DNA from: Escherichia phage JEP6
Sequence record: MT764206.1
Direction: 5' to 3' (one strand)
DNA length: 64,000 nt
A program made the translations under genes and the position numbers. Below are positions 41,021 to 52,163 of this stretch, in pieces. Position 1 is the stretch's first letter; every line of letters starts with the position of its first letter. The notes under the pieces were generated by a model. It had not been told where the DNA came from. It saw only the letters and a program-made list of their open reading frames with translations, and ran no database searches.

Positions 41021-41350
41021 TCAATTAGAAAATAAATTTATCCAAGATTGTTCTTTAATTAAAAATGGCTCAGAATCATATGCCATTAAACTCTGTGTGA
41101 TTAGTCCTTTAAAAGGCCCATCAATAAATTCCATGGTAAAATATGGAATTTTATTCATTAGCCGTGCATTAGGAGCAGTACACAAAACTCTGCATCCTTT
41201 GAATACACCTTTTTGTAATTTGTATTGCTTAGGATAAAATTCACTTAAAATGTTATTTTTTGCCAAAATTTCAAAATGATTCACCAATTTATTTTTAATA
41301 GTTTTTGGCGAAAAATAAAGATATTCGAAAAGCTGAGTGTCTGTCATCAT
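41021..41350 (-). CDS. Hypothetical protein
   Basis: ATG at 41350 overlaps the upstream stop (ATGATGA). Confidence 0.45.
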
Positions 41351-41886
41351 TGCATTCCGATTACGAAAAACTGCGGACGAGTAATACCACCAATACAACA
41401 TTTAATATTACAGCAGCAGTGTACAGTGTCAATGTGGACACTATAAATCTTATCCATATCAGGAGATTTGACAGGCTCATCAATTATATATAAAATTCGC
41501 GAAAGCGATAAACCTCTGAACTTGCTTCCTTTATTACCAATAAAACTGCGCACAGAATCAGTAAATAAACGAAAACGTATATCATCATTAGAATAACGCG
41601 AAAATTCCTTTTTAATGTTATTTGCAGAAATTTTAGCGTAAGCTGAAGTATTAGAAAGAACAATAACCGTTCCGCCATCATATAACCAATTAGCAGCAAA
41701 GTTAGTCACAGCAATTGATTTACCTGATTGACGTCCACCATCTAGTCGAAGTGTGCAATACTGTTTAAGTAAGTCTTCAAATGGTGGGACATAACCGTTC
41801 TTACAAATTTCTTCTACTCTAGCATCAGAATGGTGTGTAAAAGCATTCATCAGGGATAGATAAGGTCCAGTTAAAAATGTTCTCAT
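41347..41886 (-). CDS. Hypothetical protein occupying the denV-side position
   Basis: 179 aa; DGGRQSGKS P-loop-like segment; Cys-rich tail; no similarity to endonuclease V. Confidence 0.45.
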   Translation of the reverse strand: MRTFLTGPYLSLMNAFTHHSDARVEEICKNGYVPPFEDLLKQYCTLRLDGGRQSGKSIAVTNFAANWLYDGGTVIVLSNTSAYAKISANNIKKEFSRYSNDDIRFRLFTDSVRSFIGNKGSKFRGLSLSRILYIIDEPVKSPDMDKIYSVHIDTVHCCCNIKCCIGGITRPQFFVIGMQ

Positions 41887-41999: not shown

Positions 42000-42302
42000 T
42001 TATTTACCTTTAATTACTTTAGCTGCTTCGATAGCCGCTTGCTGAAGGTCATCCATAGACATACCGAATTTAGAAGCAAAGTTATCAATTTTCTTTTCGA
42101 CAGCATTCAAAGGCTTGGCCTGTTTACCTTCATTAGCGCCAGGAAGAGCGAGAATACGCTCTTTGTCAATATAAAGGCTTACAAGTTTCTTACGGTCTTT
42201 ATCGGACAAATCATGAAATGAATGGGCCTTTTTATTTATAGCGGCTTCTAATTTACCTGCACTCACTCGCGCTTCAGTAATAAATTCTTGATATGTTTTC
42301 AT
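42000..42302 (-). CDS. Internal head protein (IPII/IPIII-like) with capsid targeting sequence
   Basis: MKTYQEFITEARVSAGKLEA... CTS with L-x-E cleavage context; 100 aa. Confidence 0.7.
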   Translation of the reverse strand: MKTYQEFITEARVSAGKLEAAINKKAHSFHDLSDKDRKKLVSLYIDKERILALPGANEGKQAKPLNAVEKKIDNFASKFGMSMDDLQQAAIEAAKVIKGK

Positions 42303-42396: not shown

Positions 42397-42921
<525 letters not shown>

Positions 42922-45850: not shown

Positions 45851-45881
45851 AATTATATCATGCTACTTAAGAGATGTAAAC
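45851..45881 (-). promoter_or_regulatory. Early promoter
   Basis: aattatatca ... gtaaac. Confidence 0.45.
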
Positions 45882-46386
45882 TATTTTTAATTTTACAAAT
45901 TCGTTCAGCTTCTTCAACAGCGGCAGTGATAATGCTTTTAGCTATAGGAGTACTAATACTAGTAGCTTTTACACTTAACACGATTTCTTTATCTTCACCA
46001 GGCCAACCCCACGATTTTTCACCATGAGTGCCTTTAATTACAGCAGACACCTCAAGTGAGCATCCATTATCGCATGTTTTTACATTAACAACCCAAGTGT
46101 CACTTTTCTCAACCGGTTTATCCCAGTAAATATTAAGAATACGTGGGACATCAAATTTAGCAGGGCAAATCTTAACCGTAAGACCTTCGCTTTCTAGCCA
46201 ATTAATAAGAGGGCGTTCATACATGCGGCGATGTGGGCTTTGAACTCGACAAGCTTTGTACCCATTGCTCGCGGCTTCACTAAGCTCTTCTAATACCTGC
46301 TTTTGCATTATTGATAAGATACCATCAAAAGATTTTTCGGAAGTTTCATTCAGTTCGGTATAAAGAGACATAACAGTTTTCCTCAA
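45853..46386 (-). CDS. Hypothetical protein
   Basis: 177 aa ORF. Confidence 0.5.
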   Translation of the reverse strand: MRKTVMSLYTELNETSEKSFDGILSIMQKQVLEELSEAASNGYKACRVQSPHRRMYERPLINWLESEGLTVKICPAKFDVPRILNIYWDKPVEKSDTWVVNVKTCDNGCSLEVSAVIKGTHGEKSWGWPGEDKEIVLSVKATSISTPIAKSIITAAVEEAERICKIKNSLHLLSSMI

Positions 46387-46396
46387 ATTATAGGCT

Positions 46397-46427
46397 CATA
46401 ATATCTCAATCATGAGCCTATGTAAAC
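46397..46427 (-). promoter_or_regulatory. Early promoter
   Basis: cataatatctca ... gtaaac. Confidence 0.45.
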
Positions 46428-46691
46428 TTATTTCATATTATTGAAATATTCTTCTGCGATTTCGTCGTTATCATGGTAAACTTTAGAAGACAGTTTAACA
46501 TAACTTTCAGCAGTGAACATGTTAATCACAACCTTTACAGTATACCACTGACCATCTTCATTACCCATTACTGCGTAAGTTTCAAACATCGGATGGTCAG
46601 GACCGATAACTTTAATATCATTCACTGTACGACCAAAATCTTCTGAAACACATTTCATAAAGAAGTTGAACAGTTCGCCGTAATTATCCAT
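46428..46691 (-). CDS. Hypothetical protein
   Basis: ATG at 46691 with GGAG SD; the track start at 46745 lies inside the promoter. Confidence 0.5.
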   Translation of the reverse strand: MDNYGELFNFFMKCVSEDFGRTVNDIKVIGPDHPMFETYAVMGNEDGQWYTVKVVINMFTAESYVKLSSKVYHDNDEIAEEYFNNMK

Positions 46692-46733
46692 TTCATTCTC
46701 CAAGTTGTTTTTCTGTATCAGTAGTTGATAGTT

Positions 46734-46766
46734 GTATAGTACCATGGAAGGACAAGGATGTAAACC
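46734..46766 (-). promoter_or_regulatory. Early promoter cassette copy
   Basis: tatagtacca ... gtaaaccgttttgtgaaaaa. Confidence 0.55.
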
Positions 46767-46902
46767 GTTTTGTGAAAAATTTTTTAAAAAGTTTTAGGGA
46801 ATTCTAGGGCAGGGAGGGGCAATTAAAAGATAGGATAATATATTATAAAGGGTAGAAACTAAATGATGTCTAGAGAGGCCTGGAAAGGCCTAGATACCAA
46901 AA

Positions 46903-46926
46903 AGCCCCAACCTTTTGGCTAGGGCT
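46903..46926 (-). terminator. Rho-independent terminator (10-bp stem, AAAA loop, U tract)
   Basis: agccccaaccttttggctagggct followed on the transcript by UUUUU. Confidence 0.6.
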
Positions 46927-46933
46927 AAGAATG

Positions 46934-47407
46934 TTATTTGATTTGTTTAGCAGACCAAATGCGGTCTTTAATAATTTTTTGGATGTCTTCAACATACTCA
47001 AGAGAGTGAGCATGTGGGTTATCTTTGAAACTATAAGCACGAGCTAGCTTTTGGCCTTCAGTTTTGATTACTAAAAGCTCTTTAAGGATAGCTTCATATT
47101 TAGCGATAATTCCTTTAACAATATTTTTTTCTTGTGCAGCTTTAGGATCTGCTTTAGGCGCAGGTTTACCCGAAGCCTTTGCAAAAGCAGCGCCAGTAGC
47201 AACTAGACTTTTCCAGGCCATACTAACTGCATTTCCCGTAAATCCTTCTGCTTTCATGTCGCGAGCAAATTGGAATCGTGATTCGTCAGAAGCATCTTTA
47301 TAGGAATATTTACCCGCTGCAATGGCTGCTTTTGCGACAGCTTGAATTTCGGTGCTAGATGCTTCATTTAACACCGCTTCATTTAAAAATTGAGCATATG
47401 ATTTCAT
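46934..47407 (-). CDS. Internal-protein-like protein with N-terminal capsid targeting sequence
   Basis: MKSYAQFLNEA... resembles the IP CTS (MKTYQEFI.E); Ala/Lys-rich; 157 aa. Confidence 0.55.
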   Translation of the reverse strand: MKSYAQFLNEAVLNEASSTEIQAVAKAAIAAGKYSYKDASDESRFQFARDMKAEGFTGNAVSMAWKSLVATGAAFAKASGKPAPKADPKAAQEKNIVKGIIAKYEAILKELLVIKTEGQKLARAYSFKDNPHAHSLEYVEDIQKIIKDRIWSAKQIK

Positions 47408-47461
47408 CTTATTTCCTGTTTTAATTCGTGGATTTAATATACTACTATATTTATACTAAAA

Positions 47462-47485
47462 AGCCCCAACCTTTCGGTCGGGGCT
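47462..47485 (-). terminator. Rho-independent terminator (GAAA loop), near-identical repeat of 46903-46926
   Basis: agccccaacctttcggtcggggct followed by U tract. Confidence 0.6.
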
Positions 47486-47489
47486 AAGC

Positions 47490-47790
47490 CTTGCGGCAAC
47501 CTTGTCGGGGTTCCACCTGCTAAGGCAAGTGTTTGTACGAAACGCCGGGATTCGAACCCGGTTATTAAGTAGTTGACGCTACTCAATATTTTTAAAAGGC
47601 CATATCTCGACCATATCCGAACGTTCCGTCAAAAACGCTACTCGGCTTATGGCAAAGATATTTCCTCGAATCGATAATTCGGTGCGCCGTTTCTGCTGTG
47701 ATGTAAGAGGGCATCAATAAACGTAAAGATTATTAACGCAATTCCTTACTCAGGGAACATCAGTCCGACGACTTACCGGTAGCGACCCGG
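47490..47790 (-). ncRNA. Small stable RNA region (rnaC/rnaD-like) with tRNA-like 3' domain
   Basis: No ORF; T-arm-like CCGGGTTCGAATCCCGG on the transcript at about 47546-47565; ends at a terminator. Confidence 0.4.
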
Positions 47791-47794
47791 TTTC

Positions 47795-48145
47795 TTAATA
47801 TTCTTTTAAAGAATCAATATATTCACGGCGTTTACGCCACAAATCAATTGCTTCATACGCGGATTCAGCATTTCGAATTAGCCGGCATTTATGTAAAGAC
47901 TTATGATTTTGATATTGTGTAGATAACGGAATTGTATCTAAAAGGTCTTTACGATCAAAATATTCGTAACCATCTAAACCAAATGAACGATTTTTGAGAA
48001 ATTGCCAATGACCATATTCGTTTTCGACATAAACATAATCTGCATGCTGATAAAGCAAATTAATTACACGTTCAGAAATAACAGTATCATTATGATTAAA
48101 ATAGAATGTTAAATCATGAACTACTAAATAAACATTACCTTTCAT
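47795..48145 (-). CDS. Hypothetical protein
   Basis: ATG at 48145 with GAGGAAAAT SD; the longer track ORF would overlap tRNA-Arg. Confidence 0.5.
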   Translation of the reverse strand: MKGNVYLVVHDLTFYFNHNDTVISERVINLLYQHADYVYVENEYGHWQFLKNRSFGLDGYEYFDRKDLLDTIPLSTQYQNHKSLHKCRLIRNAESAYEAIDLWRKRREYIDSLKEY

Positions 48146-48163
48146 ATTTTCCTCACTTATAAT

Positions 48164-48240
<77 letters not shown>

Positions 48241-48243
48241 TAA

Positions 48244-48909
48244 TTAAAATTTCATTTTTCGACCTTTAAACCATCCTTCTGGAATTGGGTCAGTTTTCTT
48301 AATACGTTTAGAAACTTTTTCATCTAATGAATGAATCCACATCATACCAAATTGGGAATTCTTTTCGCCCTGTTGGTGTTTATTTCTGGCGTGAGATTCT
48401 TTCATTTTATTAATAGTTTCAGGAGTATGATGCTTATTTAAAAATCTGCTATTATTTAAAAATTTTTCCCTGTATTCAGGAGTTGACCACAAGCGTTTAA
48501 ATACATTTGAACCATGTTTACGATATTTTTCTTGAAGTAAAATATCATTTTTAAAACGTGACTTAAACGATTTAGCTCCTTTTAAACTAGCGTCTTTCTT
48601 CTGGTTTAGCATCCCAGGAATATTTATATGATCCCATCCACCTTCACCACCTAATTTCAAATTATAAACATCAGGGCGCTTTAAAAACTCTTCAGTCACA
48701 ATATTCTTTTCTGACTCAAACATAGAGGTTTTATCGTCAAAGAACTCTAATATTTCTTTAGAAAAATTTTCTATACCATACTTATCTTGGGCTCTTTTTA
48801 ATAATTTACCAGAACCCATATATCCATCATCTAAATTTTCGGTAGAATGCACACCAATATAAATTTTATTATTAATTTTATTTGTTATTTTATAAGTGTA
48901 ATGGAACAT
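48244..48909 (-). CDS. segB: GIY-YIG homing endonuclease (SegB-like) in the tRNA cluster
   Basis: HYTYKITNKINNKIYIGV GIY-YIG motif; 221 aa. Confidence 0.8.
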   Translation of the reverse strand: MFHYTYKITNKINNKIYIGVHSTENLDDGYMGSGKLLKRAQDKYGIENFSKEILEFFDDKTSMFESEKNIVTEEFLKRPDVYNLKLGGEGGWDHINIPGMLNQKKDASLKGAKSFKSRFKNDILLQEKYRKHGSNVFKRLWSTPEYREKFLNNSRFLNKHHTPETINKMKESHARNKHQQGEKNSQFGMMWIHSLDEKVSKRIKKTDPIPEGWFKGRKMKF

Positions 48910-48950
48910 AAATATCTCCTATTTCTAAGAGTATTTATGTTCCCAAAATA

Positions 48951-49022
48951 TGGCCCTGGGTGGAATTGAACCACCATCTGGCGATTATGAGTCGCTTGCT
49001 TGAACCTTCCAGCTACAGGGCC
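48951..49022 (-). tRNA. tRNA-Ile (anticodon CAT, presumably lysidine-modified)
   Basis: Perfect 7-bp acceptor GGCCCTG/CAGGGCC; T-arm GGTGG-TTCAATT-CCACC; anticodon loop CTCATAA. Confidence 0.7.
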
Positions 49023-49028
49023 TTGATA

Positions 49029-49101
49029 TGCTGATTGACGGAATCGAACCGCCGACGTCCTCATTACAAGTGAGGTGCTCTACCTACTGAGCTAAATCAG
49101 C
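49029..49101 (-). tRNA. tRNA-Thr (anticodon TGT)
   Basis: Acceptor GCTGATT/AATCAGC; anticodon loop CTTGTAA; T-loop GGTTCGATTCC. Confidence 0.8.
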
Positions 49102-49108
49102 GAAATTA

Positions 49109-49195
49109 CGGAGGCGATAGGATTTGAACCTATGAGTCGCCGGAGCGACTGCCGGTTTTCAAGACCGGTGCATTAAACCACTCTGCCACGCCTCC
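49109..49195 (-). tRNA. tRNA-Ser (anticodon TGA), long variable arm
   Basis: Acceptor GGAGGCG/CGCCTCC; anticodon loop CTTGAAA; 87 nt. Confidence 0.8.
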
Positions 49196-49197
49196 AG

Positions 49198-49271
49198 TCT
49201 CCGTGGCAGGATTTGAACCTACGACATTCTGCTCCCAAAGCAGACGCTCTACCAAACTGAGCTACACGGAG
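49198..49271 (-). tRNA. tRNA-Pro (anticodon TGG)
   Basis: Acceptor CTCCGTG/CACGGAG; anticodon loop TTTGGGA; T-loop GGTTCAAATCC. Confidence 0.8.
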
Positions 49272-49281
49272 TAAATTAAAT

Positions 49282-49355
<74 letters not shown>

Positions 49356-49360
49356 AAATT

Positions 49361-49447
49361 TGGTGCGAGAAGTGGGACTCGAACCCACAAGGAAATCATT
49401 CCGCAGCATTTTAAGTGCTGTGCCTTTACCAATTTGACCATTCTCGC
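49361..49447 (-). tRNA. tRNA-Leu (anticodon TAA), long variable arm, CCA encoded
   Basis: Acceptor GCGAGAA/TTCTCGC; anticodon loop CTTAAAA; T-loop GGTTCGAGTCC. Confidence 0.8.
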
Positions 49448-49453
49448 GTTATA

Positions 49454-50062
49454 TTATTTATTACGTGAAAAAGACTGTTCTATCAATTCTGGACACTTTC
49501 GTTCTATCCATTTTCTAGCTTTTTGTGGGCTTATACCTATTATTTTAGCAGCTTTACTAACCCATCCAAATTTAGAATAATCGATTTTAACTAATTCTTC
49601 GTAAATTTCATCAGTTAAAATCTTTTCATTAATATTTACCAGTAAATGATATAATTTGTTATCATTAGCAATTTTAATGAATCTTTTATAGTTTCCGCCT
49701 TTACTTAAACCTAATGAAGTAATTGCAGATGATATAGTAGCCGAATTTAATAATGCGTTTAAAATTTCTTCATCACTAACATTATAACGCTTTTTATTAT
49801 TTTTAATATTTTTACCAGCAAAAGTATCAGTTTGCGAGTGACAGTTTGGACATAATAATCTTAAATTTGATTTAAGATGATTTTTGTTATTTCCATCAAT
49901 ATGGTCTAATTGCAGAACAATATGCTTATTTTGCCATTTTGAAATTTTACAAATTGCACACTCATATGGAAAAATATTTTCTTTTATTATTTTGTCTTTC
50001 AGCTTTCCTGTGCTAAAATTTGGGTGTTTTCCTTCAAAAATTTCAGCTAATTTAGTATCCAT
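49454..50062 (-). CDS. HNH homing endonuclease
   Basis: LQLDHIDGNNKNHLKSNLRLLCPNCH HNH motif; ATG at 50062. Confidence 0.75.
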   Translation of the reverse strand: MDTKLAEIFEGKHPNFSTGKLKDKIIKENIFPYECAICKISKWQNKHIVLQLDHIDGNNKNHLKSNLRLLCPNCHSQTDTFAGKNIKNNKKRYNVSDEEILNALLNSATISSAITSLGLSKGGNYKRFIKIANDNKLYHLLVNINEKILTDEIYEELVKIDYSKFGWVSKAAKIIGISPQKARKWIERKCPELIEQSFSRNK

Positions 50063-50172
50063 AATATGATTCCCAATTATTAACAAAGGCTCTCAAACAA
50101 GAACCCTTGATGATAGAGGGTATTAATCAGTGCGGTACGAGTTAATAATAACAAATAATTCTTAAAGCATAT

Positions 50173-50466
50173 TTACCATTTATGATGATACATATTTACG
50201 ATGCATTCAAGACCCAAAGGATTCTTGAAAATATCATATTCAAGAGGACCTTTTTCTGTTTCAATAAAGAAATCAAAATTTACTGTATTAAATTTACGGT
50301 CTTCCTTCACTAATTTAACTTGAGAAGATGAACGGTCAATGTAAACCTTTTCAACTTCAAAACATGTTAAAATGCCATAATCATCAATCAAGGCTTTAGC
50401 AGCATCTTGATCATATTTATATCCATTTTCAACGGACGATACTTTCGCATAAAGAATCATTATCAA
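50173..50466 (-). CDS. Hypothetical protein
   Basis: 97 aa ORF. Confidence 0.5.
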   Translation of the reverse strand: MIMILYAKVSSVENGYKYDQDAAKALIDDYGILTCFEVEKVYIDRSSSQVKLVKEDRKFNTVNFDFFIETEKGPLEYDIFKNPLGLECIVNMYHHKW

Positions 50467-50843
50467 CCTTCATCAACAATAGTATGCGTATTGGCATTTA
50501 CAATTTGCCACCAATCAAATCGATTAGAACCATACATCGGTTTGTTTTCATTTTCTTTAATAATGTCACGGAGTTCATCTTCAGTGGCGGCTTTCGCGAT
50601 TAAATCAGCATATCCACCACGAGGATAATAATTATCACCTGCAAAAAGTAAAAAGTTTGGTTTAATGTTATTGAACTCTTCAAGAGTAATAACTTTTCCT
50701 GTTGGTTGAACAATCTCTACATATTTATATCCCAATTTTTGAGCAGCATCTACTGCTTCAAGCAAAGTATCATGAGCCCATCCTATTTGACAATTCGGCT
50801 TTTTAGATGGATTAGCCTGATAATCCGCGTACACTTTATACAT
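50463..50843 (-). CDS. Hypothetical protein
   Basis: ATG at 50843 (MYKVYADYQ...); about 126 aa. Confidence 0.5.
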   Translation of the reverse strand: MYKVYADYQANPSKKPNCQIGWAHDTLLEAVDAAQKLGYKYVEIVQPTGKVITLEEFNNIKPNFLLFAGDNYYPRGGYADLIAKAATEDELRDIIKENENKPMYGSNRFDWWQIVNANTHTIVDEG

Positions 50844-50844
50844 T

Positions 50845-51030
50845 CTATTCACCTTTAGAAATTTTATCCATAACAATAGCGATTAAACCAATTAAAAATG
50901 CTACTACAAGTGAAAACACGTTTTCTGCTGTAGTCAATAATCCGCATATAAATCCAACAAACATTGAAAAACTAAAAGCAGAAGCAGAAATTGCAATAGC
51001 AACATTTCGAATTAATTCACAACGTTTCAT
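50845..51030 (-). CDS. Small membrane protein
   Basis: 61 aa with two hydrophobic helices; GAGGAG SD. Confidence 0.5.
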   Translation of the reverse strand: MKRCELIRNVAIAISASAFSFSMFVGFICGLLTTAENVFSLVVAFLIGLIAIVMDKISKGE

Positions 51031-51056
51031 TTTATTCTCCTCAGTAGTTGATAGGG

Positions 51057-51088
51057 TAATAGTATCACAACTAAAACCCTATGTAAAC
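51057..51088 (-). promoter_or_regulatory. Early promoter cassette copy
   Basis: taatagtatca ... gtaaacaactttgtgaaa. Confidence 0.55.
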
Positions 51089-51106
51089 AACTTTGTGAAA
51101 TATTTA

Positions 51107-51394
51107 TTACAAAAGATTTTTAGCAATAATTTTGAGCTGAGCTACTGAAATATGCTTGGCTTTAAACAACGCAGTTTCTTCAGCAGGAGAGATAACGATT
51201 GTAGCACCATCCTTTTTAGCAGACCACCCATCGCCTAGGTAAACAGTACCTTTGATTTCTTCGCCATCAACCAGACTAATCATTGGTTTACCTTCTCGTC
51301 CTTTATTTGCTTTAATAACTTCAGAAGTAAGAGTAGCTTCGGTAATGGTAGAAACCGGGGTAGTTGTAGAAGTAAACTCTTTGAAAGTTTTCAT
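51107..51394 (-). CDS. ipI: Internal protein I (injected anti-restriction protein) precursor
   Basis: 95 aa MKTFKEFTSTTTPVSTITEATLTSE... with CTS and L-x-E cleavage site. Confidence 0.85.
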   Translation of the reverse strand: MKTFKEFTSTTTPVSTITEATLTSEVIKANKGREGKPMISLVDGEEIKGTVYLGDGWSAKKDGATIVISPAEETALFKAKHISVAQLKIIAKNLL

Positions 51395-51422
51395 TTTATT
51401 TTCCTAATTAATTTTGATGAGA

Positions 51423-51453
51423 TAATAGTATCACTACCTCATCAGCATGTAAA
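51423..51453 (-). promoter_or_regulatory. Early promoter upstream of ipI
   Basis: taatagtatca ... gtaaacaactttgtgaaa. Confidence 0.55.
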
Positions 51454-51466
51454 CAACTTTGTGAAA

Positions 51467-52163
<697 letters not shown>

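Follow-up and report, generated by a model that had tools for sequence, protein, structure and literature searches.

We analysed 64,000 nucleotides of DNA from Escherichia phage JEP6 (sequence record MT764206.1; the whole stretch is referred to as the window) and found that an open reading frame (ORF) of 157 codons on its minus strand (46934-47407, ATG start, beginning MKSYAQFLNEAVLNEASS) probably encodes a previously unnamed internal protein (Ip) of the T-even type, i.e. a protein that the phage packs in its head and injects along with its DNA. The ORF product belongs to the PHROGs family phrog_2280, annotated 'unknown function'. It begins with a leader resembling a capsid targeting sequence (CTS), and its gene is enclosed by two terminator hairpins, preceded by a putative late promoter, and present or absent as a unit in related phages.

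The N-terminus resembles a capsid targeting sequence

The first 15 codons of the ORF (47363-47407, minus strand) encode a CTS-like leader, or propeptide, MKSYAQFLNE/AVLNE/, where slashes mark the ends of two L-x-E sites that are of the gp21 type at the sequence level (L8-N9-E10/A11 and L13-N14-E15/A16). The second site derives from a 15-nt tandem duplication (TTAAATGAAGC...), and the ORF sequence reads AVLNEASSTEIQAVAK from Ala11 and ASSTEIQAVAK from Ala16. Mutagenesis of the IPIII leader by Mullaney & Black assigned targeting mainly to residues 4 and 7 and processing to residues 8 and 10 (PMC9026906), and the CTS alone, of which ten residues are enough, packages foreign proteins such as GFP (PMC9026906; PMC5694885). 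Both targeting residues, Y4 and F7, are present in MKSYAQF, and together with L8 and E10 followed by Ala the leader contains every residue found to be experimentally important in the T4 CTS. For comparison, the leaders in the records are MKTYQEFIAE/A for IPII and IPIII, MKTYQEFITE/A for Ip4, MKTYKEFATE/T for Ip5 and MKTFKEF...ITE/A for IPI. The motif K2-[TS]3-[YF]4-F7-[IL]8-E10-[AST]11 is expected by chance about 1e-7 times per ORF and is matched in the window by the 157-residue ORF and ipII only.

The pattern is maintained throughout the family. Close homologues start with MKTYNEFLNE, MKTYNEFLTE or MKSYAEFLTE, and all full-length homologues keep [FY]4 and F7. A profile search of 1.8 billion representatives yielded a small family with 13 matches, and representatives down to about 30% identity still show x-x-[FY]-x-[ED]-F-[LV]-x-E. 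The most distant members start with MLKFNEFLAE, MINFSDFLNE, MKSFSSFLNE and ...SFNEFLLSE, so that the leader pattern survives longer than most other sequence of the family. The initial annotation of this DNA had proposed an ORF starting MKSYAQFLNEA and a resemblance of its N-terminus to the CTS of T-even internal proteins; the ORF is real, and the resemblance holds for the critical residues, for the MKTYNEFL.E starts of close homologues and for the distant members.

Properties of the protein and detection of a homologue in phage particles

The precursor has a mass of 17.2 kDa and an isoelectric point (pI) of 9.5, and cleavage after E15 would leave 15.4 kDa with a pI of 9.6; size and pI lie within the range of known Ips. 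The protein is rich in Ala and Lys and has a Pro/Ala/Lys linker. Comparison with RB68 gave a ratio of non-synonymous to synonymous substitutions (dN/dS) of 0.05 and comparison with a Mosigvirus-like homologue one of 0.09; the ORF is under purifying selection. In the AlphaFold2 model, which has a mean predicted local distance difference test (pLDDT) score of 73.5, residues 1-15 are disordered (pLDDT <50) and the rest of the protein is predicted to form a three-helix domain, the Pro/Ala/Lys linker and a helical hairpin. Pfam and NCBIfam contain no family for the protein, and as to structural neighbours Foldseek returned a best E of 1.3 against the PDB and only the family itself in BFVD, a set of viral models. 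A sequence search of the PDB gave E = 1.8e-11 to a designer pentatricopeptide repeat (PPR) protein, and we rejected homology as no single stretch exceeded the threshold and the score was summed over identical repeats of the target. At most, the resemblance reflects one PPR-like helix pair (residues 37-67).

A nearly identical protein has been detected in phage particles. Yersinia phage fD1 (phiD1) encodes g140 (67942-68415, 157 residues, 17.3 kDa), which is 98.1% identical to the window ORF product and was listed as particle-associated by liquid chromatography with tandem mass spectrometry of purified virions, in a list that is unspecific (PMC8309999 Table S3). The list also holds the 'Head protein' pair g129 (157 residues) and g146 (94 residues), and the product of the adjacent e.8 (g139) is absent from it (PMC8309999). 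From their size and position we take g129 and g146 to be Ip4-like and IPI-like proteins.

Terminator hairpins and expression signals

The ORF lies between two intrinsic terminator hairpins on the minus strand. The upstream hairpin, AGCCCCGACC-GAAA-GGTTGGGGCT, spans 47462-47485 with a T-run at 47457-47461, and the downstream hairpin, AGCCCTAGCC-AAAA-GGTTGGGGCT, spans 46903-46926 with a T-run at 46898-46902 and begins 7 nt past the stop codon. In a terminator scan both scored as minus-strand intrinsic terminators with a 10-bp stem, a 4-nt loop and a T-run, corroborating the two near-identical terminator hairpins that had been proposed at these coordinates, and RNA folding gave -20.3 kcal/mol (z -3.84) for the upstream and -17.7 kcal/mol (z -3.24) for the downstream copy. 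They are the cores of a 36-nt direct repeat (46894-46929 and 47453-47488) with 31/36 identical positions and a spacing of 559 bp. A degenerate pattern of the hairpin occurs twice in the 64 kb, as compared to 0.00 times expected from shuffles; we rejected a genome-wide repeat family, as the window has these two copies only and the loci of ipI and ipII lack the hairpin. The stems of the two copies differ at three pairs (U-G to C-G, A-U to G-U and G-U to A-U), all of which keep pairing in minus-strand RNA and would be A-C mismatches in RNA of the other strand. As pairing is kept through G-U wobbles, both hairpins look like selected RNA structures of the ORF sense strand. The upstream hairpin would end the tRNA/rnaD/rnaC transcription unit, and a hairpin identical to it is the single copy of T4, labelled 'pot. 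stem-loop structure; pot. terminator' in T4 record X03016. Just past the downstream terminator, and within the interval originally described (start 46874), we noticed a perfect 16-nt palindrome, AGGCCTGGAAAGGCCT (46876-46891). It belongs to the conserved e.8-side flank, is degenerate in T4 and might act as a reserve terminator or mark a site of RNA processing.

A T4-type late promoter box, TATAAATA (47448-47455, minus strand), follows the T-run of the upstream hairpin at a distance of 2 nt and precedes the ATG by 40 nt; it adds to the features described in the initial annotation. Thirty nucleotides separate it from a Shine-Dalgarno sequence, AGGAAA (47412-47417, minus strand), located 4 nt before the ATG and conserved at homologous loci. 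The exact box 1-3 nt past the T-run is found in 12 of 14 regions upstream of ORFs of 153, 154, 157 or 205 residues, and in 12 of 18 if four ORFs of 187 residues are included. The other six have AATAAATA-like boxes, located ~40 nt downstream for the 187-residue ORFs and beside the T-run for the two 154-residue exceptions. No -35/-10 pair was found between hairpin and ATG. The genes e.8, IPI and 57B carry a repeated early promoter of the sigma-70 type, and ipII has both early and late kinds. This layout of promoters and terminators suggests that the ORF is a late gene with a monocistronic mRNA, shielded from its neighbours at either end, and such expression would fit the needs of a passenger of the prohead core.

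The hairpin-bounded unit is present or absent among relatives

A 1.5-kb probe around the ORF matched 753 phage records, with Salmonella phage SG1 being closest (99.5%), followed by RB51, RB68, AR1 and similar phages (96-97%), showing that the window belongs to a Tequatrovirus genome. In T4 the interval between e.8 and rnaC comprises 284 bp and no ORF. Aligned with the window, T4 is short of a 559-bp unit (46903-47461) and otherwise retains both flanks with a single hairpin between them, which is of the right-copy type. T6, T2 and PST are likewise empty at this site and have one hairpin, so that the gene is non-essential and polymorphic in close relatives. CrRp10 has an extra ORF of 187 residues between e.8 and the 157-residue ORF, and the two hairpins around the latter are identical to each other. 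RB14 has the 187-residue ORF only and corresponds to CrRp10 minus the 559-bp unit, joined at the hairpin. Two contexts, one with the 187-residue ORF and one without it, thus each occur with and without the 559-bp unit, and the hairpin is the sole homology common to the joints in both. Altogether the locus has four occupancy states, with zero, one or two leader-bearing ORFs depending on the phage, and in some genomes the two hairpins match exactly, whereas in others they differ. The comparison of this interval across T-even phages therefore bears out the initial description as a cassette, with empty single-hairpin sites on the one hand and the pair RB14 and CrRp10 on the other.

Presence of the gene is the majority state among relatives, contrary to the reading as a rare insertion. 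A 100-bp probe over the T4 junction matched 577 records, 78 of them end to end, whereas the rest stop at the hairpin, and the 157-residue protein was found in 511 phage records (467 near full length); the occupied state is therefore common and T4 the exception. Mosigvirus and Jiaodavirus (Klebsiella phage KpV477, where the gene is split) have homologues in the corresponding place, so that loss of the gene from the lineages of T4, T2 and T6 is no less probable than its acquisition by the phage studied here. No second genomic site was found in the 511 records, the gene having one place in each.

Several copies are damaged or rearranged. In the RB69 reference record the leader ORF is split by a frameshift (L023:11429-11991), ORF149c and ORF148c together representing the 187-residue form, and the copy of KpV477 is also split by a frameshift (L009:4841-5231). 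Three homologues (P0006, P0008 and P0009) are shortened to 93-111 residues. The split and shortened copies are either pseudogenes or sequencing errors. Another protein of 94 residues (P0014, from a 2898-bp Logan contig) joins a trna.3-like N-terminal part, homologous to window 50463-50876, to the last ~28 residues of the 157-residue ORF, and looks like the outcome of losing the entire tRNA/segB/rnaC-rnaD block, or else like a chimeric assembly. The Mosigvirus-type genomes OR525701.1 (KMB38), MT446423.1 (TH58) and OL780484.1 (E33) have three to four hairpin copies as compared to one to two in Tequatrovirus. A 12-kb stretch of KMB38 contains one copy, indicating that the remaining ones are elsewhere in the genome, and the extra copies might flank further cassettes.

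The leader is shared by strongly diverged proteins

A scan of IMG/VR with e.8 gave 10 loci, a sample that shows variety and not frequencies. All 10 have a leader-bearing ORF upstream of e.8, in forms of 153-157, 187 (MKTYAEFLTEAAKLPSE...) and 205 residues (MKTYNEFLNESVLNEAGVRM...). Two of these loci, L015 (205 residues) and L016 (157 residues), are identical from the hairpin over TATAAATA and the ribosome-binding site to codon 16, and past codon 16 their DNA diverges completely. The leader is also the only part shared by the 157- and 187-residue proteins in BLASTP, and the only part that aligns with IPII and IPIII in hhalign. At the protein level the 205-residue form weakly resembles the window ORF (28.7% over 164 residues, E 7e-5). 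As the 157-, 187- and 205-residue forms all fall into phrog_2280, we regard them as relatives that have diverged strongly.

The Mosigvirus-like loci (L015:1571-2235, L016:2281-2912) also hold a leaderless ORF for a membrane protein of 184-191 residues (phrog_2143, unknown function), which in L015 has its own hairpin and TATAAATA head. L015 and L016 have membrane ORF and leader ORF in opposite order.

Mode of exchange

The simplest reading of these arrangements is that excision would occur by recombination between the directly repeated terminators and insertion by the reverse reaction, while recombination where the shared leader ends could swap the cargo. Units composed of terminator, late promoter, ribosome-binding site, leader and cargo may thus be gained, lost and reshuffled by recombination at the shared terminators, and from the comparison of genomes the interval between e.8 and rnaC would be a third Ip locus.

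Alternatively, the polymorphism may go back to one old deletion in a T4-like ancestor that was spread by recombination of the flanks or by co-conversion that nearby homing endonucleases drive, rather than to a cassette moving by terminator-terminator recombination or as a mini-circle. We consider this account doubtful, albeit one to be taken seriously. In Tequatrovirus, Mosigvirus and Jiaodavirus alike the gene occupies corresponding places, a second site was never found, the flanks are 95-97% identical between relatives, and genes for a SegB-like GIY-YIG protein (48244-48909) and an HNH protein (49454-50086) are located at distances of 0.8 kb and 2 kb, respectively. Either allele could be passed on by ordinary recombination of the flanks, to which these two genes may contribute. 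Yet the end-points of the deletion lie exactly within the 36-nt repeat, and in both contexts in which genomes differ by the unit the hairpin is the sole homology at the joints. Moreover, a circular intermediate would explain simply why L015 and L016 have leader ORF and membrane ORF in permuted order, and the fact that the hairpin copies are identical or different depending on the genome suggests continuing exchange. Terminator-promoter repeats are known to form mini-circles in RB49 and phi1 (PMC2839356).

Proposed function

For the gene product we propose the following course, in which the steps after translation are modelled on T4 biology. Transcripts of the tRNA/rnaD/rnaC unit would stop at the upstream hairpin, and TATAAATA would start a monocistronic late mRNA of ~0.55 kb that ends at the second hairpin. 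The CTS of 10-15 residues would direct the 157-residue precursor to the prohead scaffolding core, and there the gp21 protease would cut after Glu10 and/or Glu15. The product, a basic helical protein of 142-147 residues, would stay in the head with the DNA and then be injected. In the host it would, by analogy, probably disarm a defence against the incoming glucosyl-hydroxymethylcytosine DNA, which is the weakest step of the proposal. Ip1, Ip2 and Ip3 each block a different type IV restriction enzyme of the GmrSD type (PMC12373910).

Several points weigh against the assignment as an injected anti-restriction protein. The leader deviates from the canonical MKTYQEFIAE at positions 3, 5, 6, 8 and 9, and cleavage by gp21, injection and the anti-restriction target are inferred. 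Nothing connects the mature part to restriction enzymes, as it matches no known family or fold, and tests of ip4-10 gave no new pairs of Ip and GmrSD (Silas et al., PMC12373910), indicating that an Ip need not target GmrSD. The fD1 list covers 113-137 of 277 phage proteins plus 672 host proteins and includes dNMP kinase and the gp57A chaperone (PMC8309999); being unspecific, it makes the detection of g140 weak to moderate support. Finally, TATAAATA occurs 13 times in the window where 11.3 occurrences are expected. We thus rejected motif count as an argument for the late promoter, and as the count is not above chance the call is based on placement and conservation.

The protein might be packaged by its leader without acting against a defence, serving as basic filler, DNA counter-ion or core accessory of the head. 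Its basic, Ala/Lys-rich composition with the Pro/Ala/Lys linker and the lack of similarity to any inhibitor or enzyme agree with such a role, and the wide distribution (511 phage records) and strong purifying selection would suit a housekeeping function. The gene is dispensable, however, being absent from T2, T4, T6 and PST and truncated or frameshifted elsewhere, and the locus exchanges strongly diverged cargo behind one leader, which is the pattern of an arms race. In addition, the T4 Ips, long thought to be fillers, are all three specific inhibitors of GmrSD enzymes (PMC12373910), and the co-occurrence of IPIII argues against a substitute for it. A pure filler is hence unlikely. That the protein specifically replaces IPIII, as the window without ipIII and T4 with ipIII but without the ORF might suggest, was rejected because ipIII and phrog_2280 occur together in F25, phiE142, vB_EcoM_005 and JS98.

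Very improbable in our view is a late protein that stays unpackaged in the cytoplasm and whose leader-like N-terminus is a by-product of recombination on a patch of 5' homology: the five differences from the canonical CTS in ten positions, the hypothetical status of leader cleavage and the leaderless membrane ORF of L015, which follows the same hairpin and late-promoter head and shows that the DNA module can move without the leader, speak for it, but a CTS of ten residues packages unrelated proteins such as GFP and the critical residues are all present, these residues are kept at ~30% protein identity, where the nucleotides are too diverged to provide homology for recombination, and the homologue g140 was detected in fD1 virions.

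We thus favour an internal protein that is packed and injected. A speculative extension, which we put forward with considerable reserve, is that the interval between e.8 and rnaC acts as an integron-like capture site for injected proteins, its portable head module of terminator, late promoter, ribosome-binding site and 16-codon leader fitting any cargo by recombination, and that phrog_2280 neutralises a defence other than the GmrSD enzymes addressed by Ip1-3. If true, a single step would be enough for T4-like phages to make an injected effector of a new protein.

Genomic surroundings

Comparison with annotated RB68, AR1 and T4 gave the gene order on the minus strand as 57B, IPI (51107-51394), trna.4/.3/.2, the HNH endonuclease gene, seven tRNA genes interrupted by the SegB-like gene, rnaD, rnaC, the 157-residue ORF, e.8 ... 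e.2, nudE, e and ipII (42000-42302). The proposed position of the ORF between the e-distal genes and the island of small RNAs and tRNAs, away from the ipI locus and from the ipII/ipIII locus, is therefore correct. The early gene e.8 (46428-46691, minus strand) flanks it on the downstream side and has its own early promoter of the sigma-70 type (46764-46736, minus strand). On the upstream side follow the stable RNAs rnaC (about 47535-47673) and rnaD (about 47679-47798, both minus strand), which were placed via the annotation of RB68 by an ungapped match of 1501 bp with 96.3% identity; Rfam has no family for either.

Between vs.8 (41347-41886) and e (42397-42885), ipII is the sole gene, and tblastn found neither denV nor ipIII anywhere in the window. 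Elsewhere this interval holds denV-ipII-ipIII (T4), Ip4-denV (RB68) or IpIV-IpIII (PST). The HNH endonuclease gene (minus strand, 210 residues; phrog_14736, E 6e-124; no Pfam match) lies between tRNA-Leu (49361-49447) and the trna.2-like ORF, the position of tRNA-Gln in T4, and no tRNA-Gln was found within 46000-50500. With this gene and the SegB-like GIY-YIG gene the tRNA island contains two genes of the homing-endonuclease type. A family of ~54-nt repeats with four copies (46387-46440, 46725-46778, 51048-51101 and 51414-51467) represents early promoters of the sigma-70 type on the minus strand (GTTTACA-N17-TAnnAT), located upstream of an ORF at the e.7 position (45853-46386), e.8, trna.4 and IPI, respectively.

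Significance and comparison with known systems

T-even Ips and polymorphic Ip loci were reportedly described by Repoila and co-workers in 1994. All database records we inspected list the product as 'hypothetical protein', annotations that name Ips (RB68, T6, PST and RB69) leave the 157-residue ORF unnamed, and PHROGs labels Ip1, Ip2 and Ip4 'internal virion protein'. We found neither the phrog_2280 family nor the e.8-rnaC locus called Ip in literature or annotations, a search that did not cover the 1994 work. The annotations speak indirectly against any of Ip4-Ip13 being a phrog_2280 protein, with a small chance left for Ip7-Ip13. In 2025, work on the function of Ips still named 'the two Ip loci' (PMC12373910). 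The results thus add a further candidate family of injected proteins with at least three divergent forms (153-157, 187 and 205 residues) outside the two recognised loci. Its carriers are ~500 sequenced phages, many of them therapy candidates, and the absence of the gene from the classical T2, T4 and T6 is probably why the family was never named. For several active variants of GmrSD an inhibitor has yet to be found (PMC12373910), and the family provides concrete genes for testing against orphan defence systems. The natural swapping of cargo behind the leader could also guide the engineering of cargo into T4 heads.

The ORF shares with the T-even Ips (IPI-III, Ip4-Ip13; Repoila et al. 1994, Mullaney & Black 1996, Bair et al. 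2007, Silas et al. 2025) a leader of the form MK(T/S)Y.(E/Q)F(I/L).E followed by Ala and gp21-type L/I-x-E sites. Like them it is small, basic, preceded by a late promoter (here a predicted one), dispensable and variably present, has strongly diverged bodies behind a shared leader, and lies in a hypervariable interval of the region from e over the tRNAs to 57B. It differs in its locus, in belonging to phrog_2280 and not to the families phrog_4363, 7857 and 3155 annotated 'internal virion protein', and in leader residues S3, A5, Q6, L8 and N9 together with the duplicated cleavage site; its packaging and cleavage are predicted from sequence, and a target in host defence is proposed by analogy. 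Unlike ipI and ipII of the window, which have early promoters of the sigma-70 type upstream, it is apparently expressed late only, from behind a terminator.

The second relevant system are the PeSL and PmSL cassettes (promoter-early and promoter-middle stem-loops; Arbiol et al. 2010, Comeau et al. 2014), which likewise combine a stem-loop terminator with a promoter and a ribosome-binding site, flank small non-essential ORFs in hyperplastic regions, and give rise to indels between close relatives that end in the motif. The ~54-nt repeats described above are similar to the promoter part of the PeSL motifs of PST and T4. The 157-residue ORF has the motif on both sides, and relatives without the ORF have one motif left, as the empty site keeps a single chimeric motif in the comparison of RB49 ORF192 with phi1. 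Its promoter, however, is of the late type, TATAAATA, instead of the sigma-70-like early promoter of a PeSL or a MotA-dependent middle promoter, so that the stem-loop cassette model of T4-type genome plasticity would be extended to late promoters. Moreover, the shared module reaches into the coding region, unlike PeSL and PmSL, and thereby would also supply a packaging tag. The upstream hairpin itself is the terminator of the T4 tRNA operon downstream of rnaC (species 1 RNA); in contrast to T4 it is duplicated in the window, where the second copy would end the mRNA of the putative internal protein.

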